Source: a virus. From it: DNA of 64,000 nt. Each line of letters opens with the position of its first letter. Positions within the stretch are counted from its first letter, which is position 1. The notes under the pieces are model-generated. The model did no database searches, was not told the DNA's origin, and saw only the letters and a program-made list of their open reading frames with translations. Position numbers and translations under genes: made by a program. This document shows, piece by piece, positions 6,353-54,806 of the stretch. The stretch spans positions 15,485-79,484 of the IMG/VR virus record IMGVR_UViG_3300032782_000005; one strand, given 5' to 3'.

Positions 6353-7606
6353 ATGAAGCCCTGCGGCCATCCCCCGGACCAGCCCGTCGAATCCTGCCGT
6401 GTGTGTTTCTTGTACTCCACCCGCCTCGACTACCGCGCCCTCTGGGACGCTACTGGTAATTTTACCAGTAGAAAATTGTCGTATCTCAAATGCGCCTTTT
6501 TAAGCCGCCGCGCCCGCAACGAAGACGGCACGGTGAAGACGCGAGCCTGCGCCCCCTGCGGCGGCAAACAACTGGAGGTATTCCGGTGCGTCTGTCCGTC
6601 GCTTAGAATCGGCGAATCGGATCACGAGACGACGCTGGCCGAATGCGAGACGTGCCCACACAGGACGAGGGGAACGATGCCCGACGCGCGGAAACTGATC
6701 CTCAGGAACCACCTTTCCCCCGGCGACGTTCTCGTGATGACCGCCGCGATCCACTCGCTGCACAAGGCGCACCCCGGAAGGTTCCGGATCGCCGTCGATA
6801 CAGCCTGCCCGGCGATCTTCGAGAACAGCCCGGAGGTCGAGCCGCTGGATAAGGCGCGCGAGGAGAAATGGGAGGAAATGGATACGCATTATCCTTTGGT
6901 GAACGAGTGCAACCAGAGGGGCATCCATTTCATGCAAGCGTACTGCTCATATTTCGAGGACAATCTGCAAGTCCGCGTTCCACTGGCGACGAACAGGCCG
7001 ATGGTGTGGCTCAGCGCCGAGGAGAAGGGCTGGATGAATCAGGTCGAGGAGGCGTTCAAATACAAGGGGAGGTTCTGGCTCGTCAACGCCGGGCGAAAGA
7101 ATGACTACACCTGCAAGCACTGGGGAACGGAATCCTTCCAGCGCGTCGTCGATTCACTCCGGGGCAAGGTCGTGTTCGTGCAAGTCGGCGCGGCAGAGCA
7201 TCATCATCCACCGCTCAGGAACGTCCTGAACCTCGTCGGCAAGACCGACCTGAGGCAATTGATCCGCCTCTGCTGGCACGCGGACGGCGTTCTGTGCGGC
7301 GTGACGATGCTCCACCATTTGGCGGCGGCCCTGGAAAAACGCTGCGTGACGATCATGGGCGGGCGCGAGCCGGTCCAATGGAACTCGTACCCTCGTTGCC
7401 AACTCCTGCACACCATCGGCTCGCTCTCCTGCTGTCGAGACGGAGGGTGCTGGAAGTCGCGCGTCATCGCCCTGCCCGACAACGCCGAACAGAACAACTC
7501 GCTTTGCGAGCAACCTCAACCGGGCGACGAACCGATTCCCCGTTGTATGAGCCTTATCCGCCCCGACGACGTGGCGTCGAAGGTCGCGCTCTTGACGACG
7601 GCATGA
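6353..7606 (+). CDS. GT9-family (ADP-heptose-type) glycosyltransferase with an N-terminal Cys-rich domain
   Basis: SPGDVLV, K.W..E.FQ.VVD, VQVG, NLVGKTDLRQLIRL and HLAAAL motifs; C-terminal CC...C...C...CM; possible internal start at 6677 with a GAGGGG RBS. Confidence 0.85.
   Translation: MKPCGHPPDQPVESCRVCFLYSTRLDYRALWDATGNFTSRKLSYLKCAFLSRRARNEDGTVKTRACAPCGGKQLEVFRCVCPSLRIGESDHETTLAECETCPHRTRGTMPDARKLILRNHLSPGDVLVMTAAIHSLHKAHPGRFRIAVDTACPAIFENSPEVEPLDKAREEKWEEMDTHYPLVNECNQRGIHFMQAYCSYFEDNLQVRVPLATNRPMVWLSAEEKGWMNQVEEAFKYKGRFWLVNAGRKNDYTCKHWGTESFQRVVDSLRGKVVFVQVGAAEHHHPPLRNVLNLVGKTDLRQLIRLCWHADGVLCGVTMLHHLAAALEKRCVTIMGGREPVQWNSYPRCQLLHTIGSLSCCRDGGCWKSRVIALPDNAEQNNSLCEQPQPGDEPIPRCMSLIRPDDVASKVALLTTA
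6450..6471. repeat. 22-bp palindrome, copy 1 (inside the GT9 ORF)
   Basis: CTACTGGTAATTTTACCAGTAG followed by AAAATT. Confidence 0.95.
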
Positions 7607-7620
7607 GGCCGGGTTACTAT
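7592..7620 (+). promoter_or_regulatory. Sigma70-like promoter
   Basis: TTGACG-N17-TACTAT; ATG 8 nt downstream (leaderless). Confidence 0.7.
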
Positions 7621-7628
7621 CCCTCCAC

Positions 7629-7766
7629 ATGGGAACCGCGCTGAGGGAATTAAAGACCTGCTTGCGTTGCGGATGGCGCTGGTTTTCGCGCAAGCCGTTC
7701 CCGCCGCGCTGTCCGAACCCGAAGTGCCGAAGCCCATACTGGAACAAGCCAAAGGCGAAGTTATGA
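7629..7766 (+). CDS. Small zinc-ribbon protein (below the ORF-track size cutoff)
   Basis: MGTALRELKTCLRCGWRWFSRKPFPPRCPNPKCRSPYWNKPKAKL; paralog of 55121..55261. Confidence 0.8.
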   Translation: MGTALRELKTCLRCGWRWFSRKPFPPRCPNPKCRSPYWNKPKAKL

Positions 7767-8236
7767 TTGCCTCGGAATGCCGCTGCTGCGAAATGAACGC
7801 CGCCGACCGCCCTTCATGGGGAGACGGTCCGTGGGCCAACGAGCCGGATCGCGCCGAATGGGAACACAATGGTCTGCCTTGCATCACTCACCGTGGCGGA
7901 AACGGCGCATGGTGCGGTTACGTCGGCGTGCCTCCAACTCACCCGTTGCACGGCAAGCGCTACGGCGAGGTTGACTTGGAGGTGCATGGCGGCCTGACCT
8001 ATTCGGACGCTTGCCATGGCCACATCTGCCACACTCCCAAGCCGGGCGAGGGCGACGATGTGTGGTGGTTCGGGTTTGACTGCGCTCATGCCTTTGATCT
8101 CTGTCCGACCATCGACGCGAAAATGCGAGATTACATCTTCCACGGCATACCAGAAGGCCACTACTGGACGCTGGAAGAGGTCCGCGCCGAAGTGAACCAG
8201 CTTGCCGATCAATTGGCGGCCTTGATGGTGAAGTGA
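7763..8236 (+). CDS. Conserved phage hypothetical protein
   Basis: WCGYVGVP..HP, VHGGLTYS and WWFGFDCAH motifs. Confidence 0.75.
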   Translation: MIASECRCCEMNAADRPSWGDGPWANEPDRAEWEHNGLPCITHRGGNGAWCGYVGVPPTHPLHGKRYGEVDLEVHGGLTYSDACHGHICHTPKPGEGDDVWWFGFDCAHAFDLCPTIDAKMRDYIFHGIPEGHYWTLEEVRAEVNQLADQLAALMVK

Positions 8237-8436
8237 TGGGCTACTTCCCCGGCTACGACAACGAACCATGCTGGTTCTGTGGTCGCTCAGACTGCAACGG
8301 CAACCATTCAGGACCGTCGGCTGACGCGGCGCGGGAGAGGATCACGCACTTCGAGCGCGGCTTCGGCCATCCGTCTTGCCCGTGTCAGTCGTGCCGCGAA
8401 ATGCGTGAACGGGAAGCGAACCGGAGGAAGGAATGA
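8233..8436 (+). CDS. Small Cys-rich hypothetical protein
   Basis: Translationally coupled ORF with CxxC motifs. Confidence 0.5.
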   Translation: MMGYFPGYDNEPCWFCGRSDCNGNHSGPSADAARERITHFERGFGHPSCPCQSCREMREREANRRKE

Positions 8437-8732
8437 AGTCGGACAAGAAGATCATCCCCCTTGGCGACCGCGTTCTCCTGCGTCTATCCGAGCCGCAGAA
8501 GCAGCAGGGCCGCATCCTCCTGCCCGAGAAGTTCGCTCCCAAACCGCAGAGCGGGGAAGTGCTTGCGGTGGGGCCGGACTGCAAGTGCGAAAAGAGCATG
8601 AAAGGCGATGAGCAGCGCATTCGCCCAGAAATGGTCGTCATCTTCAACCAGTACGCCGGCACCACTGTCCCCGGCGACGACACACTCCTTCTGATCCGCG
8701 AGGACGAGTTGCTGGGGGTCATGGAAGCGTGA
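8433..8732 (+). CDS. groES: Co-chaperonin GroES
   Basis: PLGDRVL, GEVLAVGP, YAGT and LLIREDELLGV motifs. Confidence 0.93.
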   Translation: MKSDKKIIPLGDRVLLRLSEPQKQQGRILLPEKFAPKPQSGEVLAVGPDCKCEKSMKGDEQRIRPEMVVIFNQYAGTTVPGDDTLLLIREDELLGVMEA

Positions 8733-9334
8733 GAAGCCCCGATCTAGCCTCTTGGCATTCCAGTCGGGTCGCTAAACTCGTTGAGGCGGCGCGTTACAAC
8801 GAGGCTCTTGACGAAGAAAACGACCGTCTGAAGCCTTCAGGGGAAGAGACGTTGTTCGTGGATGGCCTGCGAGCGCTGGGATTCAGCGACAAGCAGATCA
8901 GACTTCTTCATGAGGTCGATTCCCTGCTCTGCAAGTCATGCCGCGACGACTGGGCAGGTTGCCGTTGCTGGGACGATTCGTAATCGGAGTCATGGAATGA
9001 AACTGACCAAGGGCGACTGGCTCCTTCGCCTCACCGAGGTCGAGGACGACCTTCTCCGGGCGCGAGAATGTCGCTTCGGCCATTACCGCGACAGAGACAT
9101 CATCGCGTTGGAGGCTTATCTTCAATGGCTCGAGAGCAAGGCACGGAAAGCGGGGTGGGAGAGTCCGACGCAGACCGTTTCGAGGCCGTCCTGAAAGAAC
9201 TGGTCTCTACCGTCCGCGAGGCCATCGAGAAACGAAAGAACATGGGCGACCACCGGCAGCGCAAACGGCTGGAGGCCGCGCTGGAGGCGTACACGGTGCT
9301 GGTCGAGGAGTTGTACGGGAGCGAACGCGAATGA
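8729..9334 (+). CDS. Two or three small hypothetical genes (8729..8983, 8997..9194, and one ending at 9334)
   Basis: Coupled short ORFs; starts uncertain. Confidence 0.4.
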
Positions 9335-11199
9335 GCGTGCTTTATCTGGCCTTTAACGGCCACCCCGACATGGGCCAGTTCCTCGGCGACACCATCGTCT
9401 CCGTCAAGGCGGCGTACCTGATGGCGCGGGCAACTCCCTGCTCGCGCTACCTGCTCGGCCTCTCCCCCAAATCCCCACTCAACTTCCTCTGGGACAAGTT
9501 CATCGAGACCTTCCACGTCGAGGTCGTCTACGACACGTTCCATCCGGGGAACATGGACCAACGGTTCGACAGTTGGAACAAGGCGTTCAACCGCCGCGAG
9601 ATCGACGGGCGGAAATTCGACCACTACCGCGAACTCTACCGGCGGATCGACGGAGGCCACAGGCAGGGCGTTCTCTGCGGCGGTGAGCGCGGATTGGGTC
9701 GAAAGAACGTCTTCGAGTACGTCTACTATGGCCAGGAGAACAAGCCAGAAGGGCCATGCGAAGGCGGCGCGGAGTTTGCCGACGACCTGATCGCGCATCC
9801 CGTCGTCCCACCAGAATACGACGTGCTGATCGCGCCCTATGCCAAATGCCAGGGCAACGGGACGTTCACGTTTGCGTTCTGGGACAGAGTGACTCGCTTG
9901 CTTGTGGAGAGCGGCGTCAAGGTCACGGTCAACCATCACGGAGAGTTCTGCGAGGACCTGAAAGCCGGCGGTCTCTACCGTCGCATCTACCCTCCGTTCA
10001 AGGACCTGCTCCCCGAAGTCTGTCGTCACCGCCTCGTGTCCTGTGGGAACACTGGCGTCGGCTGGGTCGCAGGCGCCTGCGGAATTCCGCTTCTGGCCAT
10101 GCAGCCGCCCGACTCGAACATGCAGGACTACCGTTACGAATGGTGCGGCGTGCAATCCCTGCGCGAGTTTGTGGAGGACCCCGATGCCGAGTACGTCGTC
10201 AAACGGATTCAGGAGGAACTGGAAACGAGGACGGTGCTCACCACGGGCTGCTTCGACATACTCCATGCAGGCCACATACGCCACCTTGAGGAATCGCGCT
10301 CATTCGGAAATCGTCTGGTCGTGGCGCTCAATTCCGACGCTTCCGTCCGCTCCCTCAAGGGCGCGGATCGCCCCATACACAATCAGGCCGAAAGGGAATT
10401 CGTCTTGAGGGCCATGCGCTGCGTCGATGACGTTCAGGTCTTCGACGGCGACAACGCCCTTCGTCTGATTCACAAACTTCGCCCCGCGGTCCTGACCAAC
10501 GGCTCCGACCACAAACTGGAAGAGATCGTCGGCAAGGACTTCGTGGAATCCTACGGTGGAAAGGTGGTCGTCACCGACGGCTCGCGCACACAGACTTCAA
10601 CCAGGATCATCCAGACCGTCATCAAGCAGGTGGACGTTCTGACGGCATGTCGGGAGGCCGCCAATCTGAGCCCGAACCCGTTCCCAAAGATGAAGCTCCT
10701 GGCCGATCAGTTCCTGTCGGTGAAGGACTTGCCAGCCGCCGCAGCGGACGTTGGAGCATACCGGGGGGCATGTTCCCTCGTCATGCGGCGGCTGGCGCCG
10801 GAGAAGGAGCTGCACCTGTTCGACACATGGTCGGGCAATCCCCACGAGGACCCGCTATGTCACCACAGAAAAGGGGAATGGGCCGCCGACCTCGCCGAGT
10901 GCAAGAAGGTCGTGGGTTCAGACGCACGAACCCATTACCACGTCGGCGTCTTCCCCGAATCGGTGAATGGCGAATCGTCGGCGAGGTTCTGCTTCGTCGT
11001 GATCGACGGCGACACTTACCAGACCACAAAGGACGCCATCGCCTTCTTCTGGCCCCGCCTAGTCGAGGGCGGGAAGCTGTTCATCGACGATTACGATTGG
11101 CAACCATGCGCTGGCGTCCGCAAGGCCGTGGACGAGGCGTTCACGGACGCACAGCGGACAGTGTTCGGCAGCGAGAAAACCTGCGTGGTGAAGAAATGA
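9331..11199 (+). CDS. Tri-domain fusion: GT9-like glycosyltransferase, HldE/RfaE-II nucleotidyltransferase, TylF/MycF O-methyltransferase
   Basis: FLGDTIV...GNTGVGW (GT9-like); TTGCFDILHAGH, ALNSDASV..LKG..RP (HxGH nucleotidyltransferase); DVGAYRG, FDTW, IDGDTY, DDY (TylF-type). Confidence 0.88.
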   Translation: MSVLYLAFNGHPDMGQFLGDTIVSVKAAYLMARATPCSRYLLGLSPKSPLNFLWDKFIETFHVEVVYDTFHPGNMDQRFDSWNKAFNRREIDGRKFDHYRELYRRIDGGHRQGVLCGGERGLGRKNVFEYVYYGQENKPEGPCEGGAEFADDLIAHPVVPPEYDVLIAPYAKCQGNGTFTFAFWDRVTRLLVESGVKVTVNHHGEFCEDLKAGGLYRRIYPPFKDLLPEVCRHRLVSCGNTGVGWVAGACGIPLLAMQPPDSNMQDYRYEWCGVQSLREFVEDPDAEYVVKRIQEELETRTVLTTGCFDILHAGHIRHLEESRSFGNRLVVALNSDASVRSLKGADRPIHNQAEREFVLRAMRCVDDVQVFDGDNALRLIHKLRPAVLTNGSDHKLEEIVGKDFVESYGGKVVVTDGSRTQTSTRIIQTVIKQVDVLTACREAANLSPNPFPKMKLLADQFLSVKDLPAAAADVGAYRGACSLVMRRLAPEKELHLFDTWSGNPHEDPLCHHRKGEWAADLAECKKVVGSDARTHYHVGVFPESVNGESSARFCFVVIDGDTYQTTKDAIAFFWPRLVEGGKLFIDDYDWQPCAGVRKAVDEAFTDAQRTVFGSEKTCVVKK

Positions 11200-11819
11200 G
11201 CGGCGAAGCCTACGACGAGTCGTACTTCCTTCGCGGCAAGGAAACAGGCAAGTCGTGCTACACGAACTACTCATGGATGCCGATGCTGACGATCCCCATG
11301 GCGCGGGTGATGGCCGCCCGGCTGGGGATCAAGCCCGAAGAGACGATCTGCGACTTCGGCGCGGCCAGGGGCTACGTCGTCAAGGCGTTCCGCGAACTCG
11401 GCTACACGGCGTTCGGCGTCGATGCCTCACAATGGGCCGTGGAAAATTGTCACCCCGACGTGAAGCCGTTCCTGACCTGCGACAAGCGGGTGAGCCGTTA
11501 CTACGACTGGATCATCGCCAAGGACGTTCTGGAGCATGTCGTCGAACTTGAGGCGACGGTCGAGAACTTGATGCAGAAGGCGCACGTCGGCCTCTTCGTC
11601 GTCGTGCCGCTGTCCGCGAAGGACGGAGAGCGCTACATAGCCGAAGAATATGAACTGGACATGACCCACGTTCACCGACTGACGCTGGCGACATGGGCGG
11701 CGATGTTCATTCGCCCCGGTTGGTCGGTCGAGGCGACCTACCGCGCCAAGGGCATCAAGGACAGTTGGGACCACCTGGGGCCGTGCAACGGATTCTTGGT
11801 TGTTAAGAGGAACGGCTGA
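11196..11819 (+). CDS. Class I SAM-dependent methyltransferase
   Basis: CDFGAARG, GVDAS and DVLEHV motifs. Confidence 0.85.
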   Translation: MSGEAYDESYFLRGKETGKSCYTNYSWMPMLTIPMARVMAARLGIKPEETICDFGAARGYVVKAFRELGYTAFGVDASQWAVENCHPDVKPFLTCDKRVSRYYDWIIAKDVLEHVVELEATVENLMQKAHVGLFVVVPLSAKDGERYIAEEYELDMTHVHRLTLATWAAMFIRPGWSVEATYRAKGIKDSWDHLGPCNGFLVVKRNG

Positions 11820-12646
11820 TGAAGACGCTTGGGGCGTGCTTGAACTTTTTTAATGAGGCAGACGCCCTCCCAGGCTGGCTCGAATCCGCTTCGCGCTGGG
11901 CCGACGACATTGCCGCCTACCAGGCCGGTCCGAACGGCGAGGAAAGCGACGATGGCTCCATTGAGATACTGGAAAAGTGGCGCATCCCCATCCACCGCGG
12001 CTCGATCAACGAGGGCTTCGGCATCGTCCGCACGGCGGCTGTCAGAGCCTGCAAGACGGACTACGTGATGCTGCTCGACGCCGACGAACGATTCCTCCAC
12101 TCGGGCCAGGTTCTGACCTGTTCGGGTGAGAACACATCGCTGGAAGTTGAGCAACAGGTCTTGCAGGAGTACGACACCGGCGAGCCGGGCCAATGTCCGG
12201 CCAACTGGGAGAACCTGTCTAAACTGGGCGCGAAACTGTCCGTCTCGTTCGGCGAAGTATACAACCAGGCGGCCTGGGTCAAGGACTTCATCCAGCACGG
12301 CGACCTCGACGCCGTGTGCATGATCCGCCGCCACTGGCACGACTTCACCTTCAAGCGCCCCACGCAGAACTGGCACACGCGGCCGGACTACCAGATTCGG
12401 CTGGTGCGCAACCGCGACGACGTTCACTGGGACGCCAACACGAAGATGCACGAGACGCTGGTTCCTGGCAACCGGAACATCTACCAGCCCAACCACACCC
12501 ACGGCCCCTTCTACGACCACTTCCACTGCTTCTTCAAGAGGCTGTCTCCCCTCAAGCGCCAGTTCGCCGTGCGCGTTTACCGTGCCATCCATTACGGTCA
12601 CGCGGTGCCGTCGTGGAAGGCGTTCAAGAAGGAGTACGGCGGGTGA
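11819..12646 (+). CDS. GT2-family glycosyltransferase
   Basis: FFNE, SDDGS, LLDADE, PDYQIRL and HE motifs. Confidence 0.85.
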   Translation: MKTLGACLNFFNEADALPGWLESASRWADDIAAYQAGPNGEESDDGSIEILEKWRIPIHRGSINEGFGIVRTAAVRACKTDYVMLLDADERFLHSGQVLTCSGENTSLEVEQQVLQEYDTGEPGQCPANWENLSKLGAKLSVSFGEVYNQAAWVKDFIQHGDLDAVCMIRRHWHDFTFKRPTQNWHTRPDYQIRLVRNRDDVHWDANTKMHETLVPGNRNIYQPNHTHGPFYDHFHCFFKRLSPLKRQFAVRVYRAIHYGHAVPSWKAFKKEYGG

Positions 12647-13308
12647 AGACTTTGCTGCTGACCGGCTACGACGACGCATTCGCGCCGCTGGGTAAACTGA
12701 CCGAGCCGCTGATGCTCGCCTATGCCAAGCGCCAAGGCTTCACTTTCGCGTGCATGAGGGAGGGTCTGGGCAACACGGAACACCCGTCGTGGTGGAAGAT
12801 GCGTCGCCTCCTGAGCGCCTTCGACCTTCCGCCGAAATCATCCTATTCGCCTTATCACGACGGTTCCGGCCTCTGTGACCACGTGATCTGGATGGACGCC
12901 GACATGGTGATAACCAACCCCCATTTCGTCCCGCCGGGCGAATCGGGCTATCACTGCTCGCGCGACTGGGGGCAGGACGCGACCGAGCCGTGGATGCTGA
13001 CCAACTGCTGCTTCGCCGCCTTCCCCGACAGCCTGCCCCTGATCCGGTGGGTGCTGGAACACAAGGACGATTATTCCTGCGAGTTTCACGAACAGAACCA
13101 TGTGCGCGAGGCGGCCAGGGGTCCGTTCAAGGGCGTGATTCACGTCCACCCCAGCCGCGTTTTCTCCGCCGTACCCGTCGAGATTCACCCCAGCGTGCGC
13201 GAGCCGTGGCGGCCGGGGGACTGGGCGGCGCACCTGACGATGGTTCCACTGGCCGAGCGTGTGCGTCTAGCCCGTGAGTTCATCAAACGCACAAAAGGGG
13301 CATGGTGA
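12643..13308 (+). CDS. GT34/GMA12-MNN10-like glycosyltransferase
   Basis: YAKRQG, PSWWK, WMDAD, EQ and GDWAAH motifs; GTG start overlaps the upstream stop. Confidence 0.75.
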   Translation: MKTLLLTGYDDAFAPLGKLTEPLMLAYAKRQGFTFACMREGLGNTEHPSWWKMRRLLSAFDLPPKSSYSPYHDGSGLCDHVIWMDADMVITNPHFVPPGESGYHCSRDWGQDATEPWMLTNCCFAAFPDSLPLIRWVLEHKDDYSCEFHEQNHVREAARGPFKGVIHVHPSRVFSAVPVEIHPSVREPWRPGDWAAHLTMVPLAERVRLAREFIKRTKGAW

Positions 13309-14801
13309 AGCCAGTCTGCCTCGTCATCCCGCCGTCCTGCTTCCTCCTGGACGAGCGCGTGTTTATGTCGCTCGGCGTCCTGCGCGTCGCCGCCGTCTTG
13401 GAACGCGCCGGCGTTCCCGTCGAGATTCTGGACTTGTCCGGGATTATGAATTACGAGGAAGCCGTCCGATTCCACGCCCGCCACTTTAGCGGGTGGACTT
13501 ACGGGATCACCGCCACGACCCCGCAGATGCCGGCCGTCGCGCGGATCGTCTCCGTGCTGCGGGAGCAGATCGGCCTGCGTCTGATCCTGGGCGGCCCGCA
13601 CGTCACGCTGGTCCACGCGGCCTTCAAGAAAGGCGCCGCCCGCGCCGGCGAAGCGCTGTCGCGGTTGAAAGAGATGTTTGACGTGCTGGTGGCCGGCGAT
13701 GGAGAGGGGGCTATCTTTGCCGCCGTCGCGGTCGAAGCGCCCCGCCTGATCGACGCCGACGACCCCAAGGGGCCGTACTTCCTGACCGACGCCCGCTACG
13801 AGAGCCTGCCCTGGGCCGCCCGGCATCTGGTGGACGTGAGGAGTTACCACTACTCCATCGACGGAGTTCCGGCCCTGTCGATGATCGCGCAGCTAGGCTG
13901 CCCGTTCGCCTGCGCCTTCTGCGGAGGGCGCGAGTCGCCCATGCTGCGCCGCATCCGCACGAGGTCCACCGAAAGCATCGTCGCCGAAATGGCGCATTTG
14001 CATGAGGCCTACGGCGTGCGTGGGCTCATGTTCTACGACGACGAGTTGAACGTGAACAGGCAGGTCGTTGAACTCATGGACGCCATCGCCGCGATGGGGA
14101 TTGACTGGCACTTGCGCGGCTTCGTCAAGGCGGAACTGTTCACCGACCGTCAGGCCGAGGCCATGTACCGCGCCGGCTTCCGCTGGCTCCTGGTCGGCTT
14201 TGAGTCGGGTTCGCCACGGGTTCTGGAAAACATCAACAAGAAGGCCACGCGCGAGGACAACACGCGCTGCCTGCGGACGGCGCGAAGGCACGGTCTGAAA
14301 GTCAAGGCGCTCATGTCGCTGGGTCACGCGGGGGAGAGTCTGCGTACGGTTCAGGACACGGAGGATTGGTTGCTGGAAGAAAGGCCGGACGACTTCGACG
14401 CCACGGTGATTACCACCTACCCCGGAACCCCGTACTACGATCGCGCCGTCGAGACGACGCCCGGAATATGGACATACACCGCCAGGTCGGGGGACCGCCT
14501 GCACGCCTGCGAGACGGACTTCCAGGGAGAGGCGGTCTACTACAAGGGGATTCCGGGGCAATACAAATCCTTCGTCTTCACCGATCATTTGTCGGCCGAC
14601 GAGATCGTGGCCCTGCGCGACTGCTTGGAGGCCGACGTGCGGCGTCAACTGGGCGTTCCGTTTAACGCGGGCGCCCCTGGCGTTCGCTATGAGGCGTCGA
14701 TGGGGATGCTGCCGGGACACATCCTGCGGCGGTCGATGACGGATCATGAGCAACAGCGGCTTCTCGATTGGGAGCCGATCCCTGACTTCTGCGGAGATTG
14801 A
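13302..14801 (+). CDS. B12-binding radical SAM protein (class B methyltransferase-like)
   Basis: N-terminal cobalamin domain (ILGGPH, GDGE); GCPFACAFC; GFESGS; YPGT. Confidence 0.9.
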   Translation: MVKPVCLVIPPSCFLLDERVFMSLGVLRVAAVLERAGVPVEILDLSGIMNYEEAVRFHARHFSGWTYGITATTPQMPAVARIVSVLREQIGLRLILGGPHVTLVHAAFKKGAARAGEALSRLKEMFDVLVAGDGEGAIFAAVAVEAPRLIDADDPKGPYFLTDARYESLPWAARHLVDVRSYHYSIDGVPALSMIAQLGCPFACAFCGGRESPMLRRIRTRSTESIVAEMAHLHEAYGVRGLMFYDDELNVNRQVVELMDAIAAMGIDWHLRGFVKAELFTDRQAEAMYRAGFRWLLVGFESGSPRVLENINKKATREDNTRCLRTARRHGLKVKALMSLGHAGESLRTVQDTEDWLLEERPDDFDATVITTYPGTPYYDRAVETTPGIWTYTARSGDRLHACETDFQGEAVYYKGIPGQYKSFVFTDHLSADEIVALRDCLEADVRRQLGVPFNAGAPGVRYEASMGMLPGHILRRSMTDHEQQRLLDWEPIPDFCGD

Positions 14802-15865
14802 ACGTGCCTAGGATCGTCGTCGCCATTACACACAGTTACACGTGGTTCTGGACGCAGGCGTGCTTGGCCGCGCTGAAGCGGACGCTGGCCGAGGGCGCGG
14901 CGGACGGCTTCGGCGTGGAGATCGTGGTCGTCGATAATTCGTGGGAGAATAGTCCGTCCATTTACGGCGTCACGAAGACGCGACTGGGCGAGGGCGTGCG
15001 GGTCGTCGAGAACAAGGTCTTGCACAGCCACTCGGTCGCCATCGACATTGCGTTCAAGTCATCCTGGCCGATGGACTACTTCGTCCCCATCGACAGCGAC
15101 TGCATCGTCATGCGCCCGAGTTGGCTCACGGAGTTCCTTTCTCGCCTGCGCCCAACGGACTACGGCATTGGCGCGCTTCACTCCGAACTCGGCGTCTGCT
15201 GTTCCTTCGCCTTGTACAACGCTCAGGCCGTCAAGCGGATGGCCGATGCGAGCGCCGCGAACCCCGACCGCCATTTCCGGTGGGGCGACGGCTTCGCGCT
15301 ATCCGAGCCGATCCCAGATGGTCACGAAGAAATCCTGAAAGGCCCGTTCTCCGACCGGCGCGGCTGGCCGCCCGGAACGGTTCTGAGGGAGAGGCCGGCG
15401 GGTTTGACGCGCGGTCCGGGCTGGTACGAGCCGGGTCAGATGTTCCACTTCTGGGCCTTGGAGGCAGGCTACACTTATTCGATCTGCCCGTCCCGGACGA
15501 TCCGCGACGACGCGCGGGGCATACCGCTGGGCACGTTCTACGGCGTCGATCCGGCGCTGCCGATGGGCTACAACGAGTGCCGCGACGCCTGCTGGGCCGT
15601 CCACTTCTGGGGCGGGACGCGCGCCCAGGATATGGTCAATTTGCAGGGCGGAAGTCTGACCGATCCGGCGATCATCAGCAACATCGGCTTCTGGCTGGAG
15701 AGGGAGGCCGGTTGGTGGATGAATCAGGTCCCCGCCGACGTTCGCGCCGAGACGCTGAACCTCATCAGGGAATACGGGTGGGTGCGCAAGGTGAGGCCGG
15801 ACGCCCGCCCTGATTCACTGACGCGAATGAAGGCGTGGTACAAGGCCGGAGGCGTCGATCTGTGA
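14798..15865 (+). CDS. GT-A fold glycosyltransferase-like protein
   Basis: VVVDNS and IDSDC motifs; TTG start. Confidence 0.65.
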   Translation: MNVPRIVVAITHSYTWFWTQACLAALKRTLAEGAADGFGVEIVVVDNSWENSPSIYGVTKTRLGEGVRVVENKVLHSHSVAIDIAFKSSWPMDYFVPIDSDCIVMRPSWLTEFLSRLRPTDYGIGALHSELGVCCSFALYNAQAVKRMADASAANPDRHFRWGDGFALSEPIPDGHEEILKGPFSDRRGWPPGTVLRERPAGLTRGPGWYEPGQMFHFWALEAGYTYSICPSRTIRDDARGIPLGTFYGVDPALPMGYNECRDACWAVHFWGGTRAQDMVNLQGGSLTDPAIISNIGFWLEREAGWWMNQVPADVRAETLNLIREYGWVRKVRPDARPDSLTRMKAWYKAGGVDL

Positions 15866-16965
15866 AGCCAATCCCTCTGTTCAAGGTCTTCATGCACCCG
15901 GACGCCTCGCCGGCCGTGGCGAAGGTGCTGGAGAGCGGCTACGTCGGCCAGGGTCCGCGCGTCGAGAAGTTTGAGAACGAATTGCGATGCCACTTCAATT
16001 ATCCGTGGATCAACACGCTCAACAGCGCCACGTCTGGGTTGCAGTTGGCCGTCCACATGCTCAAGGGAACGTACCCTGACACCGAAGTTCTGACGACGCC
16101 GCTGACCTGCACGGCGACCAGTTTCGCCATTCTTGCCGAAGGGCTGAAGATTCGCTGGGCGGACGTGGACCCTAACACGGGCAACATGGATTTGAACGAT
16201 GCGTGCCGCAAAATAAACGCCAACACGCTCGCCATTATGGTAGTGCATTGGGGTGGATATCCTTGCGACCTTGATCGCATTGAGGCGATTCGCAAAGGGT
16301 GCAAGATGATGTTCGTCATCGAGGACTGCGCCCATGCGTGGGGCGCGACCTATCGAGGCAAGCCCATCGGGGCGCACGGCAACACGGCCGTCTTTTCGTT
16401 CCAGGCCATCAAGCACCTGACGACCGGCGACGGCGGCTGCATGGTCTCGCCAAATGAGGCCCACTACCGTCGGGCCAAACTCCTCCGCTGGTACGGCCTC
16501 GACCGCGACAGCTCCGCCGACTTCCGCTGCGCCCAGAACGTGAAGGAATGGGGCTTCAAGTTCCACATGAACGACATCGCCGCGAGCATCGGGCTGGCAA
16601 ACTTTCCATACGTCGATGGGTTGGTGGGCGTCCACCGTTCCAATGGCCGCTTCTACAACAAGGCGCTGGCAAGCACGCCCGGCCTGACTCTGATGGAGAA
16701 CAAGCCGGACCGTGAATCCTCCTTCTGGGTCTACACCGTCCGCGTGGAGGACCGAGATGGCTTCGTCCGTAAGATGACGGAGAAGGGAATCGCCGTCAGC
16801 CAGGTCCACGCCCGCAACGACAAGCACGACTGCGTGAAGGAGTTCCGCTGTCACCTGCCGGGGATGGATATTCTGGAGCGGGAGATGATCTGCATCCCTT
16901 GCGGCTGGTGGGTGACGGCGGAGGACCGCGAGTACATCGTCGATTGCATCAGGGAGGGATGGTGA
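15862..16965 (+). CDS. DegT/DnrJ/EryC1/StrS PLP-dependent sugar aminotransferase
   Basis: NSATSGL, IEDCAHA and FSFQAIKHLTTGDGG motifs. Confidence 0.93.
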   Translation: MKPIPLFKVFMHPDASPAVAKVLESGYVGQGPRVEKFENELRCHFNYPWINTLNSATSGLQLAVHMLKGTYPDTEVLTTPLTCTATSFAILAEGLKIRWADVDPNTGNMDLNDACRKINANTLAIMVVHWGGYPCDLDRIEAIRKGCKMMFVIEDCAHAWGATYRGKPIGAHGNTAVFSFQAIKHLTTGDGGCMVSPNEAHYRRAKLLRWYGLDRDSSADFRCAQNVKEWGFKFHMNDIAASIGLANFPYVDGLVGVHRSNGRFYNKALASTPGLTLMENKPDRESSFWVYTVRVEDRDGFVRKMTEKGIAVSQVHARNDKHDCVKEFRCHLPGMDILEREMICIPCGWWVTAEDREYIVDCIREGW

Positions 16966-17546
16966 TGGAATACCTCTACCGACACCGGAACGGCATCCTG
17001 TTCCGCCGCGTCAATGCGGGCGACCTGTCGGACCTGACCGACCTCAAGAACGAGAGTTGGTTCGGCACGCACCGCATCTCCTTCGTCAGCGCGGACAGTC
17101 AGAGGCGATGGCTGGAGGCGCTGGACCGCGAGAACGTTCACGCCCCCGGCAATCTAGTCCTCGTGGCCTGTACGGACGAGCCGGCAGACGACATGCCCGC
17201 CCCGGCGCCGCGTCCGAACCACGCCGGCCTGAGCAACGTCGGGGTGTTCAAGATACTAGGCATCGACTGGCAATCCCGCCGCGCCTCTGTCGGCTGGGAC
17301 ATTTACCGCCCCTATCGAGGCGAGGGCCTGGGCAAGAATCTGGTCGAGGCGGGAATCGCTTTCTGCTTCAACGTCCTGAACCTTCACCGTCTTCAGGCCG
17401 ACGTGCTGGACACCAACCACGCCTCGCAGAAGTGCGCACTGGCCGCCGGCTTCATCAAGGAAGGCTTCCAGCCCAGGTGCATCCTGCGGGGCGGGAAGTG
17501 GATCGACAACGTGATCTATGGGATCGTGGCCCCGGAACCGGAGTGA
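16962..17546 (+). CDS. GNAT N-acetyltransferase (RimJ/PseH-like)
   Basis: YRGEGLGK, LNLHRL, N.AS and GF..EG motifs. Confidence 0.85.
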   Translation: MMEYLYRHRNGILFRRVNAGDLSDLTDLKNESWFGTHRISFVSADSQRRWLEALDRENVHAPGNLVLVACTDEPADDMPAPAPRPNHAGLSNVGVFKILGIDWQSRRASVGWDIYRPYRGEGLGKNLVEAGIAFCFNVLNLHRLQADVLDTNHASQKCALAAGFIKEGFQPRCILRGGKWIDNVIYGIVAPEPE

Positions 17547-17549
17547 GGC

Positions 17550-17834
17550 ATGACGGACGCTGAGCGCACGGCTGAATGGAAGCGGCAGGAATTGGCGAAG
17601 TTGGATTCCGTGGGCTGGCCCCCAAACGTGAAGGATGCTCTTGCCGATGCCTGCGTGGCACTTCGTAAGTATCGCAGTGATCTCGACCAGCCCTGTCATA
17701 CAAGTGCCTATGCCAGCGGTCATGCACTGGATGATGCAATGAGGCGCTTGCTTTCGTTGCGTTCGCCGAGCGATTACGGGTTGATGCAAGCGTTCCTTGA
17801 AATGATTCCCGAAGACGAAAGGGACGAACTGTGA
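17550..17834 (+). CDS. Hypothetical protein
   Basis: RBS plus ORF; lower GC. Confidence 0.5.
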   Translation: MTDAERTAEWKRQELAKLDSVGWPPNVKDALADACVALRKYRSDLDQPCHTSAYASGHALDDAMRRLLSLRSPSDYGLMQAFLEMIPEDERDEL

Positions 17835-18994
17835 AGACCGCGCTGCCGCTGAAGGACACGTTCACGTCCACGGGGCACAAATTTTTTGCCCATCAGGAAA
17901 CGATGCGCAACTTGCGGAACGGCAAGGGTCAGCCGGTCGTCACGCACTTGATGCCCACATCGGTCTGCGCTCACTCTTGCGCCTTCTGCTCCGTCCATCA
18001 TCGCCCGCACGAGGTTCTGCCGCTGGCCGACATGACGACCTATCTCGACATCCTGCTCCGCTACGGCCTGAAGGCGGTCATCATCAGTGGCGGCGGCAAC
18101 CCGATCTTATACAGGTGCCCCGACACGGGAGCCGACTTCAACCGGCTTGTCGATGAGGTCTATCGGCGGGGACTGGAGATCGGCGTCATCAGCGACGGAA
18201 TGCCATTGCGAGTTGACGAGCCGACGATGCGGCAGATGTGGAAGGCTGTGCATCCGGAGACAATCGACAAGTTGACTTGGCTGCGGATCAGCATGGCCGG
18301 CTTGGATCACCAGGAGAACTGCGTCCACGTCCCAGACGTGGACCCGTCACGGACGACGCTGGGCTTTTCCTACGTCCTGCATGACATCTATGACGAACCG
18401 GCGGATAAGGCTCACGGCAAAGTATCCACGCCAGCCGACCTCATCACCGTCGGTTACGAACGACTGCATAACGACAACATTAAGCCAGTTCGGTTCGCCG
18501 AGGACCGCGTTCCGGTGCTGACCAGCCAGATCGACGAGATCGTGCGGAAGTACAAACCGACCTATGTTCGATTGCTCCCGAACTGCTTGCAACCGGAGCT
18601 GATCCAGCAGCGGTGCGATCTGCTCCAACGGATGGCCGACGCCATCGACCCGGACGTGGTGTTCGTGCAGTACAAGCCGCCGGCCGCGCCGAATGTATGC
18701 CTGCTCGGCAGCATTCATCCAGTCCTCAATACAGATGGTTTTTGTTATCCTTGCGACAGCTGTGTATTAAACGACTCAGCAGGTCACAAATTCGCCAACC
18801 CATGGAGGATGTGTCACTGGAGCGAGATCGCCAGCATCTACGAAAGACCGCTCCGCAGCCTGATAGATAACCCACATGAGAGATGTCCAGGGTGCGTATT
18901 TACCCAAAGCAACCTCTTGCTGGAAAAGGTGTGGAAGGGCGAGGTCGAGCCGACGCCTCCGGTCGAGACGCCGGAGCACGTCAACTTCGTCTAA
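17831..18994 (+). CDS. Radical SAM protein with SPASM/twitch domain
   Basis: CAHSCAFC and SGGGNP; C-terminal C...DG..YPC...CPGC. Confidence 0.85.
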   Translation: MKTALPLKDTFTSTGHKFFAHQETMRNLRNGKGQPVVTHLMPTSVCAHSCAFCSVHHRPHEVLPLADMTTYLDILLRYGLKAVIISGGGNPILYRCPDTGADFNRLVDEVYRRGLEIGVISDGMPLRVDEPTMRQMWKAVHPETIDKLTWLRISMAGLDHQENCVHVPDVDPSRTTLGFSYVLHDIYDEPADKAHGKVSTPADLITVGYERLHNDNIKPVRFAEDRVPVLTSQIDEIVRKYKPTYVRLLPNCLQPELIQQRCDLLQRMADAIDPDVVFVQYKPPAAPNVCLLGSIHPVLNTDGFCYPCDSCVLNDSAGHKFANPWRMCHWSEIASIYERPLRSLIDNPHERCPGCVFTQSNLLLEKVWKGEVEPTPPVETPEHVNFV

Positions 18995-19022
18995 AGAAGT
19001 ATAATAGCTATCGTTAAATTTC

Positions 19023-19044
19023 CTACTGGTAAAATTACCAGTAG
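19023..19044. repeat. 22-bp palindrome, copy 2
   Basis: CTACTGGTAAAATTACCAGTAG; its left flank (18991-19022) aligns with the flank of copy 4. Confidence 0.95.
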
Positions 19045-19139
19045 CCGAGGCCAGTCATGGAAGCCGCCTATAGAATAATGAAGCCGGAGCGCGCGACCGC
19101 CCCGGCTTCCAGACACAGCGAACCATGTGGGGGTCCGCC

Positions 19140-19817
19140 ATGCCGAAGAAAAGCCTATCCGTTCGCACCGATCTTGTCCACCGGCCTCCCCCTCCAGATG
19201 AAAACATCTCTGGCAAGGAATTCGGTCAGTGGAAAGTTCTTGAGTATGCCGGATCGAAACAGGGTCGGTGGTATCGCTGCCGCTGCTCATGCGGTTACAT
19301 TGCCGTCGTTCATGGTGGAGAGTTAAAAGGAGGCCGTTCTTTGAGTTGCGGGCATGATGGATCGACTTACAGGCATGGCCATGGAAGTCGCGCGCATGAG
19401 AAAAGGCCAGCAGAATACAATGTGTGGGTTCTGATGCGTGACCGCTGCAATAACACAAACTCAAGGCACTACAAGAACTATGGTGGCCGTGGAATCAAAG
19501 TGTGTGAGCGATGGGACGACTTCGCTGCCTTCCTCGCCGACATGGGGCCGCGCCCATCGCCGCAACACACCATCGACAGAATCAACAACGACGGCAACTA
19601 CGAGCCAAGTAACTGCCGATGGGCGACGAGGGCTGAGCAGGCGAGGAACAAGAGAACGAACATCCAAATCTCGCACAATGGCACGGTCTTGTGTCTTGCG
19701 GAGTGGTGCAAGAAATTGAATCTTCCTTATCTGCGGTCTTATCGTCGCCTCCGTAATGGCGAGAGCGTGACTGCAGTATTTGCTGAGAAAGGAGGTCAAC
19801 CAAGCCATGACGACTGA
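19140..19817 (+). CDS. HNH homing endonuclease
   Basis: M.DRC, NYGGRGIKVCERW, TIDRINNDGNYEPSNCRWAT. Confidence 0.9.
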   Translation: MPKKSLSVRTDLVHRPPPPDENISGKEFGQWKVLEYAGSKQGRWYRCRCSCGYIAVVHGGELKGGRSLSCGHDGSTYRHGHGSRAHEKRPAEYNVWVLMRDRCNNTNSRHYKNYGGRGIKVCERWDDFAAFLADMGPRPSPQHTIDRINNDGNYEPSNCRWATRAEQARNKRTNIQISHNGTVLCLAEWCKKLNLPYLRSYRRLRNGESVTAVFAEKGGQPSHDD

Positions 19818-21157: not shown

Positions 21158-21332
21158 GGCCCATCATGTTCGGGGCCAAATGCTCGCGCTGCCCTTATTG
21201 GGTGAATATTTCAGCAAACGCGACTCATGAAGTGCGAGATTATTTGGTCGATAGCGGCTGGGAAATTCTGACGCAGCCAGTGCAATTGCTCTGTCCATGG
21301 TGCGTTGACAAAAAGAGGGCCAAGGAAAAGCC

Positions 21333-28387: not shown

Positions 28388-28409
28388 CTACTGGTAAAAT
28401 TACCAGTAG
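28388..28409. repeat. 22-bp palindrome, copy 3
   Basis: CTACTGGTAAAATTACCAGTAG followed by AAAATT. Confidence 0.95.
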
Positions 28410-28448
28410 AAAATTATCCCCTCTCATTTATAGCACATCAAGCTCCTC

Positions 28449-42378: not shown

Positions 42379-42406
42379 AGGGGCACAATAGCTATCTCAC
42401 AATTTC

Positions 42407-42428
42407 CTACTGGTAATTTTACCAGTAG
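42407..42428. repeat. 22-bp palindrome, copy 4
   Basis: CTACTGGTAATTTTACCAGTAG. Confidence 0.95.
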
Positions 42429-48504: not shown

Positions 48505-48724
48505 GCAAAGACCGGAAAATTCCTTCCCCTTCTAACTCTTCTCAAACTTCCCTCACTTCCCCAGCGCCGCAGCCGATGACCTCGGGAGCGCGCGGCGTGA
48601 ATTGACGGCAAAGACCGGAAAATCCTTTCACACTCTCCCCTCTTCCAAGTCTTCCATACCTTCCCGCGACGCGCCGGCGGAACGCGCGCGGACTTTATGC
48701 GCGCGAGGCGCGAAGAATTGACGG
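48505..48724. repeat. Direct repeats with CTTC-rich tracts of ~9-nt period (origin or pac candidate)
   Basis: GCAAAGACCGGAAAAT at 48505 and 48608; GAATTGACGG at 48599 and 48715. Confidence 0.6.
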
Positions 48725-48732
48725 GGCGAAGG

Positions 48733-49371
48733 ATGCGGCGTACATTCGACCGCATGGCCGCACATCTCACGCGCCGCGCCTGCGGTTTGGCTCGCTCGCG
48801 ATGGGGTGAGCGGGACACATTGTCCAACGTCACTGGTCGCGGTCCGGATCACCCAAAGACCATTCTCCGCGGCGTTCTTTCCTGGGGCCTCAACAGAGCG
48901 CAACTAGCTAAGGCAATGAGAGTTGCGGACGCGCTGCTTGACGATCCCGATCCGGCAATGCGAGCAATCGCCGTCAAGCTCCACATCGCCATTCACGAGC
49001 AAGACCGGCGGATTGCTCGTGACGAGGCCGATGTGGATCATGGCGCCGCCCGCCTACAGCTAGACGCCCATCTCGCAAGACTAGCAAGCGATTCAACTTA
49101 CGCCAACGCGATAGCTTCTCTCCCCGTCCCGCGCATTTCGCCCGAAACTGGACAGAGTGAGGGGGAAGAATCCGCTACTGGTAATTTTACCAGTGCGACC
49201 GCTGACGCCATAACTGTCTGTCCGCTCGGCGCTTGCGACGGCGGCGGATACGTCGTGAGTCCGGCCGGCGCCGTCCCGTGCGAATGTCAACGGCCGGAGC
49301 GCGGACAGAACGGTCCGGGTGGACGCGGGCGCATCGTCGGCGGACGGACTGGGGACGCCTACGAGCGCTAA
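48733..49371 (+). CDS. Hypothetical protein, possibly terminase small subunit
   Basis: Helical ORF upstream of the TerL operon; start uncertain; contains palindrome copy 5. Confidence 0.35.
   Translation: MRRTFDRMAAHLTRRACGLARSRWGERDTLSNVTGRGPDHPKTILRGVLSWGLNRAQLAKAMRVADALLDDPDPAMRAIAVKLHIAIHEQDRRIARDEADVDHGAARLQLDAHLARLASDSTYANAIASLPVPRISPETGQSEGEESATGNFTSATADAITVCPLGACDGGGYVVSPAGAVPCECQRPERGQNGPGGRGRIVGGRTGDAYER
49175..49196. repeat. 22-bp palindrome, copy 5 (20/22 match)
   Basis: CTACTGGTAATTTTACCAGTGC. Confidence 0.9.
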
Positions 49372-49447
49372 GGGCGGCGCGCAGGGCGAGATCGCCATAT
49401 AGCCTCCGCACCCATCCCTCCAAAACACACCAAAAATCAAATCGAAA

Positions 49448-49492: not shown

Positions 49493-49522
49493 GACGTTGC
49501 CTGAATGGAGGAGTGTGAAGTC

Positions 49523-51104: not shown

Positions 51105-51131
51105 CGCCACCAGGGTCCTACGATTGCCATC

Positions 51132-53453: not shown

Positions 53454-53456
53454 GCC

Positions 53457-54749
53457 ATGCCCTCGTCCAGTTCGTCATCGGGTCCGGCGCAGACAGCGTA
53501 CTGGAATCCCACGGCTCCCCCTGTGGCGCAGGTTGATTCGCTCACCGTTGGCGCAGTCGCCCTTGGCGGAGTCATAACCGCGACCGTCGGGATTTACCCC
53601 AATCAGGGCTCCGTTTCTTACACCTGCACCGGCTCCGATACGACCTCAACCGCAGCCTCCGCCCTTCAGGCGCTGCTCGCAGCGCTACAGGACGGAAGGT
53701 TTCAGGAGATCGCATGGACCGTCTCGGGCGCGGTCATTACTGCTACTGCCCAGACGGCTGGGACGCCATTCACCCTCGCGGCCTCATCTTCCGGAGGCGC
53801 GACGCTGACCCGCGCCGCCGTGACGGCGAACTCTTCTCCCAATGACGCCGGAAACGCCCAGAACTGGAACCGCAACGGTCAACAACAGTTGCCTCAAAAC
53901 GGCGACGCGGTGATCGTCCAGAACAGCGCCGTCTCGCTCCTGTGGAACCTTGGAACACTGGCAAGCGTCCAGTTCGCCTCCTACACGCGCTGGCAGTCCT
54001 TCACCGGACAGATCGGCTTGCCCCCGGTCAACAAAAACGGATACGTCGAGTATCGGCCCCAATATCTGCAATTCGCCGGCCCACCCGGCGGAACGCTGAC
54101 GATGAACTTGGGTCCGGGACAGACGGGGAACGGCCCGAGCCTGGAGCGCTACAACGTCGGGACTCAGCAGACGACCCTGAACCTCCTGGGCTCCGGAACG
54201 GCCTCTCTCGACTACGCCGTCTACTTCCTTGGCTCGAACGTCTTCAACGTCCTCAACGTCTACGCCGCTTCAATCGGAGTCGCCACGCTTCCCGGCGAGA
54301 CGGCCTCGATCCAGACTGCGACGGTCCTGAACGGCGCGACCGCGACCTTTGGAGCGGGTTGTACGTTCTCCGGGACCCTGACCCTGAACAACTCGGGCGC
54401 GGTCCTGTTCGACGCCCCCAACACGATCTACGCCCAGCAATCTTCTCAGGTCGTCGTGGAGTCGAGCGGCGGCCTCCAGTATCCAACCGTGACGGCCATT
54501 TCCGGCTCGACCATTACATGGTTGAGCGACGGGAACATCTCCACGCTCACCCTCCAGACGGGCGCCACCTTCGATAAATCGCAGGACGCCCGCCCCATCG
54601 TCGTCACGAGCAGCAATCAGGATGGCGATAGCACTGTATCGAAGGACCCGTGGTCCGCTATCACCTGGACGAATCCGATCACTTTCCGGAACGCGGTCCA
54701 GAATGGGCCGGTCCAGACGGGACCTGGACGCACGTTCAAGCTCGTCTGA
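53457..54749 (+). CDS. Putative virion protein (beta-helix-like) with N-terminal poly-Ser
   Basis: T/S/G/N-rich and almost uncharged; starts MPSSSSSSG. Confidence 0.6.
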   Translation: MPSSSSSSGPAQTAYWNPTAPPVAQVDSLTVGAVALGGVITATVGIYPNQGSVSYTCTGSDTTSTAASALQALLAALQDGRFQEIAWTVSGAVITATAQTAGTPFTLAASSSGGATLTRAAVTANSSPNDAGNAQNWNRNGQQQLPQNGDAVIVQNSAVSLLWNLGTLASVQFASYTRWQSFTGQIGLPPVNKNGYVEYRPQYLQFAGPPGGTLTMNLGPGQTGNGPSLERYNVGTQQTTLNLLGSGTASLDYAVYFLGSNVFNVLNVYAASIGVATLPGETASIQTATVLNGATATFGAGCTFSGTLTLNNSGAVLFDAPNTIYAQQSSQVVVESSGGLQYPTVTAISGSTITWLSDGNISTLTLQTGATFDKSQDARPIVVTSSNQDGDSTVSKDPWSAITWTNPITFRNAVQNGPVQTGPGRTFKLV

Positions 54750-54751
54750 CG

Positions 54752-54773
54752 CTACTGGTAAAATTACCAGTAG
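54752..54773. repeat. 22-bp palindrome, copy 6
   Basis: CTACTGGTAAAATTACCAGTAG followed by GAAAATT. Confidence 0.95.
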
Positions 54774-54806
54774 GAAAATTAAAGATCACTAAAATGGGTT
54801 TTTGAC

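Follow-up and report, generated by a model that had tools for sequence, protein, structure and literature searches.

Nine dispersed copies of a 22-bp palindrome in a phage genome as candidate docking sites of a divergent orphan ParB-like protein

The 64,000-nt window analysed here, bases 15485-79484 of the complete 79,484-bp virus record IMGVR_UViG_3300032782_000005 (62% G+C, 127-bp terminal repeat), carries a 22-bp palindrome at several widely separated places, and the question raised by this DNA is which protein reads the palindrome and to what end. A preliminary description made from the sequence listed six copies and proposed a ParB-type clamp system for genome organisation or long-range regulation. 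We lean towards reading the palindromes, of which there are nine in the whole genome, as docking sites of the ParB-like protein encoded at 32617-33675, from which this protein would act over the neighbourhood; the proposal is built on sequence comparison and on a structural model. The + strand carries nearly all genes of the phage, and positions given below are those of the window unless marked as genome positions.

A search pattern with two 10-nt arms around a pair of W bases matched the window without mismatch at 6450, 19023, 28388, 42407 and 54752 and with two mismatches at 49175, which are exactly the positions described before; against these six real matches stand none in 100 dinucleotide-preserving shuffles of the window. 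Extension of the scan to the full genome, as had been proposed, gave three more copies: genome 12862 (perfect) and genome 2044 (two mismatches), both outside the window, and a ninth copy matching at 18/22 positions at 33095-33116 (genome 48579). The total for the genome is nine, namely six perfect copies, two with two mismatches and the one at 18/22, and among the 12-mer repeat families of the genome the palindrome is far ahead of all others in copy number. In each of the nine copies the centre consists of AA or TT, never of AT or TA, and its orientation is independent of that of the flank described below; this variation may reflect a flip-flop at the middle of the inverted repeat. Both orientations occur, as noted earlier, with six copies running with the + strand genes (forward) and three against them (reverse). 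The gaps between the nine sites measure 4.7-12.6 kb with a coefficient of variation (CV) of 0.28, and compared to nine random points on a circle the spacing is more regular than random (P = 0.0004 for a CV equal to or below the observed one, P = 0.002 for a minimum gap equal to or above the observed one).

Some copies lie between genes and others in frame within them. Three forward copies exactly fill gaps from a stop codon to the next ribosome site or start, and at these stop-to-start copies the distal TAAAG of the flank holds the TAA stop of the upstream gene. The first, at genome 2044, lies between the stop of one gene and the next gene, whose start codon appears to be the TTG formed by the last three bases of the mutated palindrome. 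The second, at 18992-19044 (genome 34507; flank 18992-19022, perfect palindrome 19023-19044), fills the 62-nt gap that separates the ATG at 19057 from the stop of a radical-SAM gene at 18994. The third, at 42376-42428 (genome 57891), has its flank followed by a perfect palindrome at 42407-42428, with a stop at 42378 on one side and a GGAGAG ribosome site and the ATG at 42442 on the other. The three reverse copies are found at 6450-6502 (genome 21934; perfect palindrome 6450-6471, flank to the right at 6472-6502), at 28388-28440 (genome 43872; perfect palindrome 28388-28409, flank to the right, weak coding signal around) and at 54752-54804 (genome 70236), where a perfect palindrome begins 2 nt past the stop of the portal gene and the flank extends to the right up to the ATG at 54807. 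Four copies are in frame, all in the same reading frame, and encode the peptide xTGNFTS or STGKISS. These are the copy at genome 12862 (PTGNFTS), the copy at 6450 within the open frame 6254-7606, the forward copy at 49144-49196 (genome 64659; palindrome 49175-49196, both mismatches at the right end) within the open frame 48697-49371, and the degenerate forward copy at 33064-33116 inside the ParB-like gene (STGKISS). The reading ATGNFTS reported before for two in-frame copies is correct for the open frames 6254-7606 and 48697-49371.

Close to two of the intergenic copies further features are seen. A 12-bp G+C-rich stem-loop at 19080-19109, 36 nt past the copy at 19023, opens a stretch of about 800 nt with weak coding signal (19045-19855), and relatives of an open frame within this stretch, 19125-19817, occur at 8 of the 80 ParB-like loci described below. 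The 632-amino acid open frame 40480-42378, which has no match in Pfam or PHROGs, ends just before the copy at 42407; in this region a crude gene model also scored a minus-strand frame, 41097-42251.

The one-sided flank, described before for five copies, is real, but it is not limited to these: an arm of about 31 nt abuts the palindrome at all nine copies, with a consensus of roughly AAAaagG.A.AA.tG.GA..g.A.AATTTc. On the arm side the mean pairwise identity over 31 nt is 0.466, a value attained by none of 5000 composition-preserving shuffles (0.290 +/- 0.013); on the side opposite the arm it is 0.271, which is the chance level. The arm has 58-76% A+T in eight copies, set against the 62% G+C of the genome, and keeps this composition at intergenic copies; the weakest arm, at the copy 49175, has 42% A+T. 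The arms of the palindrome itself are 0.915 identical across copies and the adjoining AT-rich arm has diverged to 0.466; since, in addition, six copies are perfect, it is the palindrome itself that is under selection.

The history of the element can be read at two junctions by comparison to L005, the only relative found via the terminase (62% identity over the best segment), which shares its gene order with this phage from the terminase across the head genes and into the module that follows. Two element junctions lie in this region (genome 70236 and 2044); at each, the genes of L005 are directly coupled and no element is present, with an ATGA overlap at the former and a TAA followed immediately by ATG at the latter, which marks the element as an insertion of some 55 bp. 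Such a history, together with the occurrence of the element in both orientations and at intergenic as well as in-frame positions, and with a single unit of about 55 bp ancestral to all copies, would also be expected of a small selfish repeat of the type of miniature inverted-repeat transposable elements (MITEs), tolerated by the phage, with the palindrome as a recognition end devoid of phage function. We regard this as quite improbable. There are no terminal inverted repeats besides the palindrome itself, no clean target-site duplication at the two junctions comparable with L005, and no recognised transposase; random insertion would not give regular spacing, and a palindrome kept perfect while the rest of the unit decayed is the opposite of neutral decay. 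Database searches agree with this. The exact 22-mer is in no other IMG/VR contig, the 20-nt core is absent from related metagenome contigs, and nowhere in 241 million metagenome records or 185,579 species genomes (one genome each) is the core present in multiple copies. A host repeat or MITE with target-site duplications, which the preliminary description had set against its own proposal, was rejected on these grounds.

The matches to the 20-mer core which do exist (29 in metagenomes and 9 in genomes, each single-copy) lie mostly in low-G+C coding sequence or in unrelated iteron arrays. A Paraburkholderia match is located at the end of a transposase-like open frame (by eye) and is single within its 8-kb locus. 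The core with an AT centre occurs within dense arrays of short ATTACCG-type repeats in contigs L009, L019, L023, L026, L027, L029 and L033-L036; these contigs come from two samples and have a G+C content of 0.39-0.51, and the repeats resemble iteron arrays of an unrelated element. No cultured relatives of the phage were found by megablast or by tblastn in the phage collection.

The candidate binder is a protein of 352 amino acids encoded on the + strand at 32617-33675, recognised by profile, AlphaFold2 (AF2) model and Foldseek. It is composed of a ParB/Srx nucleotide-binding domain with the P-motif GHHR, a helix-turn-helix (HTH), a disordered linker, a CxxC...CxxC motif and a long coiled coil. 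A profile of 11 homologues matches sulfiredoxin (5e-6) and Myxococcus ParB (2e-5), and some of the homologues have precomputed PF02195 matches. In the AF2 model, based on 50 sequences, residues 1-152 have a predicted local distance difference test score (pLDDT) above 90 and are followed by the linker, modelled as disordered (155-189), and by the coiled coil (198-351). The top Foldseek matches in the PDB are the Noc-DNA complex 7OL9 (7.5e-8) and the structures of ParB with cytidine diphosphate 6SDK and 7BNK; Caulobacter ParB (7BM8, 6T1F), KorB (8QA8/9), PadC and Srx are also matched. The alignments cover 137-166 columns, corresponding to the nucleotide-binding and HTH domains; those with the ParB, Noc and KorB chains, which are C-terminally truncated, span 144-166 columns. 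The P-motif (Box II, GERRxRA in canonical members) reads G64-H-H-R67-x-x-A70; among 50 homologues, G64 and H66 do not vary and R67 and A70 are conserved to at least 90%. By the predicted fold, and by the position of the HTH after the nucleotide-binding domain, the protein belongs with the ParB-type cytidine triphosphate (CTP) hydrolases and would form a dimer.

The preliminary description had counted three ParB-like genes and no ParA in the window, and both statements hold: 32617-33675 is ParB-like by fold and profile and the two genes 55266-56051 and 56030-56872 by PHROGs, and the genome-wide search for parA which it had suggested gave no match to PF13614 or PF01656 in the whole 79-kb genome, while 14 of 14 control genomes matched. 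As no ParA-type ATPase is present, the protein 32617-33675 is an orphan, and it is a divergent member of the ParB family. The interpretation in the earlier work is supported in part: comparative evidence favours the link to a ParB-like protein and narrows it to one of the three genes, 32617-33675, but this support does not extend to a CTP-dependent sliding clamp.

This link comes from the gene itself. The in-gene copy at 33064-33116 encodes residues of about 149-167 (KNGQMGEDKKSTGKISS), which fall in the disordered linker, where the pLDDT is below 50. About 290 relatives of the protein were found in IMG/VR and 80 loci were analysed for palindromes, defined as perfect, with arms of at least 8 nt, a loop of at most 4 nt, a total length of 17-29 nt and a distance of at most 90 nt from the end of the HTH-coding part. 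Such an in-gene palindrome is present at 28 of the 80 loci, against 2.2 expected from the palindrome density of the same loci, and mostly lies within 10 nt of the HTH end. These palindromes are mostly symmetric to the very centre, with loops of 0-1 nt. None of the 28 loci has a second copy of its in-gene palindrome within +/-10 kb.

The palindromes vary by lineage, and half-sites are common to subsets of them. The half-site CTATCTGG is found in the gene in L063 and, with differing centres, at remote positions 7.5-8.6 kb downstream in L090, L067 and L047; the half-site is TCTATCTG in the gene of L066, CACTGG in L123 and L085, and CTACTGG in this phage. A clade without in-gene palindrome carries related palindromes 5-8.6 kb away, which are single in near-complete genomes of 58.6 kb and 61 kb. 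In six relatives of this kind that were compared, the loci of +/-10 kb share with this phage essentially only the ParB-like gene, and in one case also part of the helicase. A rough relationship is seen between recognition helix and class of palindrome, xKTV going with ATCT...GGAAATTCC...AGAT and VSHxxV with ...CTGG/...ATGG. A 16-mer scan of IMG/VR was dominated by a conserved low-G+C coding segment; in the high-G+C subset, 5 of 9 had the ParB-like gene nearby.

At the protein level, the corresponding position of the linker is occupied by STGNISS and PTGNISSS in the closest homologues, P0004 and P0009, and the peptide preceding it in P0004 is homologous to the peptide encoded by the arm in this phage. 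Arm and palindrome would therefore be ancestral in the gene, and the eight dispersed copies derived from there; the in-gene copy 33064-33116 is, judging from these comparisons, probably the ancestral home copy.

The family data also bear on whether the palindrome acts as DNA or as RNA. Once transcribed, it would form a stem of 9 bp closed by a 4-nt loop, three forward copies are placed precisely between a stop codon and the next ribosome site, and TATAAT-like hexamers occur in the arm at some copies, so that an RNA signal for processing, stability or pausing, or an ordinary repressor operator outside the ParB family at host-type promoters in the arm, has to be considered. We judge this improbable. 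Three copies are reversed with respect to the genes and four are read in frame as part of open frames; the top of the stem is rich in A+T, and no U-tract or T-run follows the stem on either strand. The mismatches in the three degenerate copies are not compensatory and are confined to one half; since the palindromes of the family are, moreover, mostly symmetric to the centre, a two-fold dimer on duplex DNA fits better than a hairpin. Rfam and transfer RNA searches gave no matches. An intrinsic terminator was rejected, as the T-run is missing and the terminator scan, at chance level, picks up none of the copies. A sigma-70 promoter was likewise rejected: matches to the -35 and -10 hexamers with a spacing of 16-18 nt do not exceed the chance level (4 where 2.7 were expected, and 4 where 3.4 were), and the sole promoter-like match in an arm is on the minus strand, at 28441-28413.

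Another possibility is that the array is read by the ParB-like product of 55266-56051 or of 56030-56872. Both genes lie 0.5-1.3 kb downstream of the perfect copy at 54752, and L005 lacks both of them as well as two element copies in the region covered. The gene 55266-56051 (+ strand, ParB-like by PHROGs) encodes a ParB-like domain followed by an HTH-like segment, as seen by eye in the translation. This gene, in turn, has an in-gene palindrome of its own at 55621-55646, of 26 nt (25/26), different from that of the array, single-copy and the longest in the genome, and provides an internal control for the assignment. A search with the single sequence found no IMG/VR relatives and an alignment-based search found 10, four of which (L180, L181, L186, L187) carry perfect palindromes of 24-30 nt at the same place, +320 to +338 of the homologous gene. 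Given two unrelated ParB-like families each with its own in-gene palindrome, the CTACTGG array is assigned to 32617-33675 and not to its neighbours. The protein 55266-56051 has 2,330 homologues (the best 119 of 2,330 at 47-63% identity), yet the 22-mer is in no other viral contig and the 20-nt core in no related metagenome contig, and 56030-56872 has no in-gene palindrome. That the array is read by either of these two proteins is, on this evidence, highly improbable. Orphan ParB-like genes of phages may in general carry such an in-gene palindrome. In L005 (9600-9958) the portal gene is followed by one small gene and then directly by another head gene; at the corresponding place of this phage, 54774-57271, the two ParB-like genes and a pair of small genes are inserted.

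According to the reading we favour, that of docking sites for the protein 32617-33675, the site and about 31 nt before it would have begun as the linker-coding segment of the ParB-like gene, the usual place of the palindrome in this family. A piece of about 55 bp would then have been copied to eight further places, between genes or in frame within them and in either orientation, and the copies giving an even lattice of about 9 kb over the chromosome would have been kept. A dimer of the protein would bind each palindrome via the HTH and, from the sites, act over neighbouring kilobases, either as a nucleoside triphosphate-gated clamp in the manner of ParB, Noc and KorB or by recruitment of the superfamily 2 (SF2) helicase encoded downstream. 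Binding, nucleotide use, spreading and biological purpose are what we infer in this scheme; a loading platform of the ParB, Noc and KorB type agrees with the fold and the regular spacing as well as with the in-gene and the dispersed sites. A wider version of it, in which phage orphan ParB-like proteins generally keep the cognate site in their own gene and this phage has copied the site as a lattice of about 9 kb to obtain a ParA-free loading system, is tentative and we hold it to be rather doubtful.

Several observations weigh against the assignment of the sites to this protein and against a clamp mechanism. The relatives hold the palindrome once or twice per genome, so that the array is not a trait of the family, and among the nine copies of this phage it is the in-gene one that has degenerated most. 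The relationship between recognition helix and palindrome class is confounded by phylogeny. Pfam and PHROGs at default sensitivity do not call the protein 32617-33675 a ParB. In its P-motif the canonical GERR is replaced by GHHR, with changes of the E and of the first R, and in place of the Box III motif ENxxR, which serves catalysis and Mg2+, the aligned stretch is SNAAHGLQRT, in which N99 is invariant but neither the acidic residue nor the spacing of the arginine is canonical; the use of CTP is therefore uncertain. A symmetric dimer alone leaves the oriented AT-rich arm unexplained. Finally, palindromes with a similar core in the relative L083 belong to an O-like initiator, so that similarity of the core alone is not diagnostic.

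The L083 palindromes had been considered as support for the assignment and were dropped, as they sit together with two DnaA boxes in a separate gene for a winged-helix, O-like protein. In L083, the region 6780-6970 of the open frame 6414-7385 combines an AT-rich inverted repeat with a 23-nt palindrome in three copies and with two DnaA boxes, both perfect; lying in a gene with an N-terminal winged-helix domain, this region is a lambda-O-style origin within an initiator gene. A different array is present in L085, where four GATC-rich palindromes of 16-20 nt within 120 bp are followed by a (GGAA)n run at 6483-6650, 3.5 kb upstream of a gene for a 966-amino acid ParB-like fusion protein.

The gene neighbourhood suggests a second role for the same binder. 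The SF2 helicase gene (33917-35470, + strand; ResIII/DEAD and Helicase_C domains) is coupled translationally to the ParB-like gene via a gene for 82 amino acids, and a helicase homologue lies downstream on the same strand, mostly directly, at 53 of the 80 homologue loci; in the relatives L090 and L087 a primase follows the helicase. The helicase neighbour, and the primase in two relatives, point at least as much to replication or helicase loading as to a clamp. The sites would in this case be origin-like, the palindrome being bound, the AT-rich arm unwound and the helicase loaded, as evenly spaced starts of replication or recombination. The A+T content of the arm, high also at intergenic copies of a G+C-rich genome, and the lack of a ParA agree with it, and even spacing would cut replication time. 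The lambda ori lies in gene O, and SPP1 has oriL in gene 38 and a second origin, oriR, far away; as proposed here, the site is in the linker-coding part of the gene of the binder, near helicase-loading genes and beside an AT-rich stretch. Unlike the protein of this phage, the lambda and SPP1 initiators have winged-helix or other folds and not ParB/Srx, and their origins are arrays of four or more iterons; we know of no origin of the lambda or SPP1 type made of nine separate single sites. In this phage each site has a single palindrome and no iteron array, DnaA boxes are at chance level with none at an element site, and the three reversed copies show no pattern of fork direction. The in-gene palindromes of the relatives have no AT-rich neighbour, and L083 has its separate O-like initiator with ori-like array beside the pair of ParB-like and helicase genes. 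In L071 and L099 (in L079 and L084 by length) the ParB-like homologues are fused to an MT-A70 adenine methyltransferase domain and not to replication domains; in these other phages a site-reading module may deliver a DNA methylase. Origin-like sites are, all considered, an unlikely explanation.

The favoured docking-site reading has counterparts in several known systems. The OB operators of RK2 are about a dozen sites scattered over the plasmid, in varying positions relative to genes. Like the system proposed here, KorB-OB of the IncP-1 plasmid RK2 combines a ParB-family protein with nucleotide-binding domain and HTH with one short palindrome on a mobile replicon (PMC11790492, PMC13584720). 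Action at a distance is conceivable also in this phage, and KorB (8QA8) is among the fold matches. In distinction to the phage protein, which has GHHR and no ParA, the CTP motifs of KorB are canonical, and it works with KorA, TrbA and IncC, the last being a ParA. The phage site also differs, with 22 bp, an oriented AT-rich arm, regular spacing, in-frame copies and an SF2 helicase as conserved neighbour of the binder gene.

In Bacillus subtilis there are about 70 Noc sites, and one parS is said, after Lin and Grossman in 1998, to lie inside spo0J, which would be, as in this phage, a site within the gene of its own binder. Spo0J/ParB of this species has several dispersed parS (PMC5016525). The Spo0J-parS and Noc-NBS systems provide the best fold matches and have palindromic sites dispersed over the chromosome, and Noc too is an orphan without ParA. 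Unlike the phage sites, parS and NBS have 14-16 bp, no arm and are regionally clustered rather than evenly spaced; Spo0J and Noc carry GERR and ENxxR motifs and a different C-terminal domain, and their function in segregation and nucleoid occlusion is cellular. Phage N15, similarly, has a few copies of the palindromic site of a ParB-type protein in distant regions of its genome; in contrast to the phage studied here, which lacks a ParA, N15 encodes the ParA protein SopA and persists as a plasmid. Among the genes for lysogeny or plasmid maintenance that were searched, none was recognised in this genome.

Orphan ParB folds are frequent in phages and bind CTP, adenosine triphosphate or guanosine triphosphate, their nucleotide specificity cannot be predicted from sequence, and their Box III is often divergent (PMC12704722). 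Fusions of phage ParB folds to DNA methyltransferase have been reported, the roles of those without ParA were left open, DNA targets were not addressed, and the main text of that survey makes no mention of palindromes (PMC12704722). The protein of this phage belongs to this class (PMC12704722), being divergent, ParA-less and carried by a mobile element, with some homologues fused to a methyltransferase. ParB activators of phage thymine dioxygenases lack a DNA-binding domain (PMC13229309); a link to these enzymes was considered and rejected, as Tet_JBP matches nothing in this genome.

Relative to the literature found, new are the 22-bp site with an oriented arm, its even lattice over a whole phage genome, the probable origin of the site in the coding sequence of its candidate binder, and the in-gene palindrome across two families of phage ParB-like proteins. 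If the assignment is true, it would provide a simple rule to predict the DNA site of orphan ParB-like proteins. The phage would be a natural case of selected number and spacing of sites, informative for the reach of a ParB-type clamp or of a partner helicase, and would also supply a defined pair of protein and 22-mer for binding, nucleotide and sliding assays. On the wider and more doubtful version of the reading, the targets of hundreds of uncharacterised ParB-fold proteins could be read from sequence alone, and a clamp or a recruited helicase could reach every part of the genome without ParA.

The remaining gene content noted in the window includes a 16-kb block of sugar-pathway genes at 6353-22691. 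Besides GT9-like and GT2 glycosyltransferases and a DegT/EryC1 aminotransferase, it encodes two radical SAM enzymes, one of them B12-binding, and two cytidylyltransferase-like proteins, of which one is fused to TylF/methyltransferase domains and the other carries a PfkB kinase domain. Downstream of this block, at 24731-26134, is encoded a phage protein of 467 amino acids with a papain-family (Peptidase_C1) cysteine protease domain (E 1e-30).

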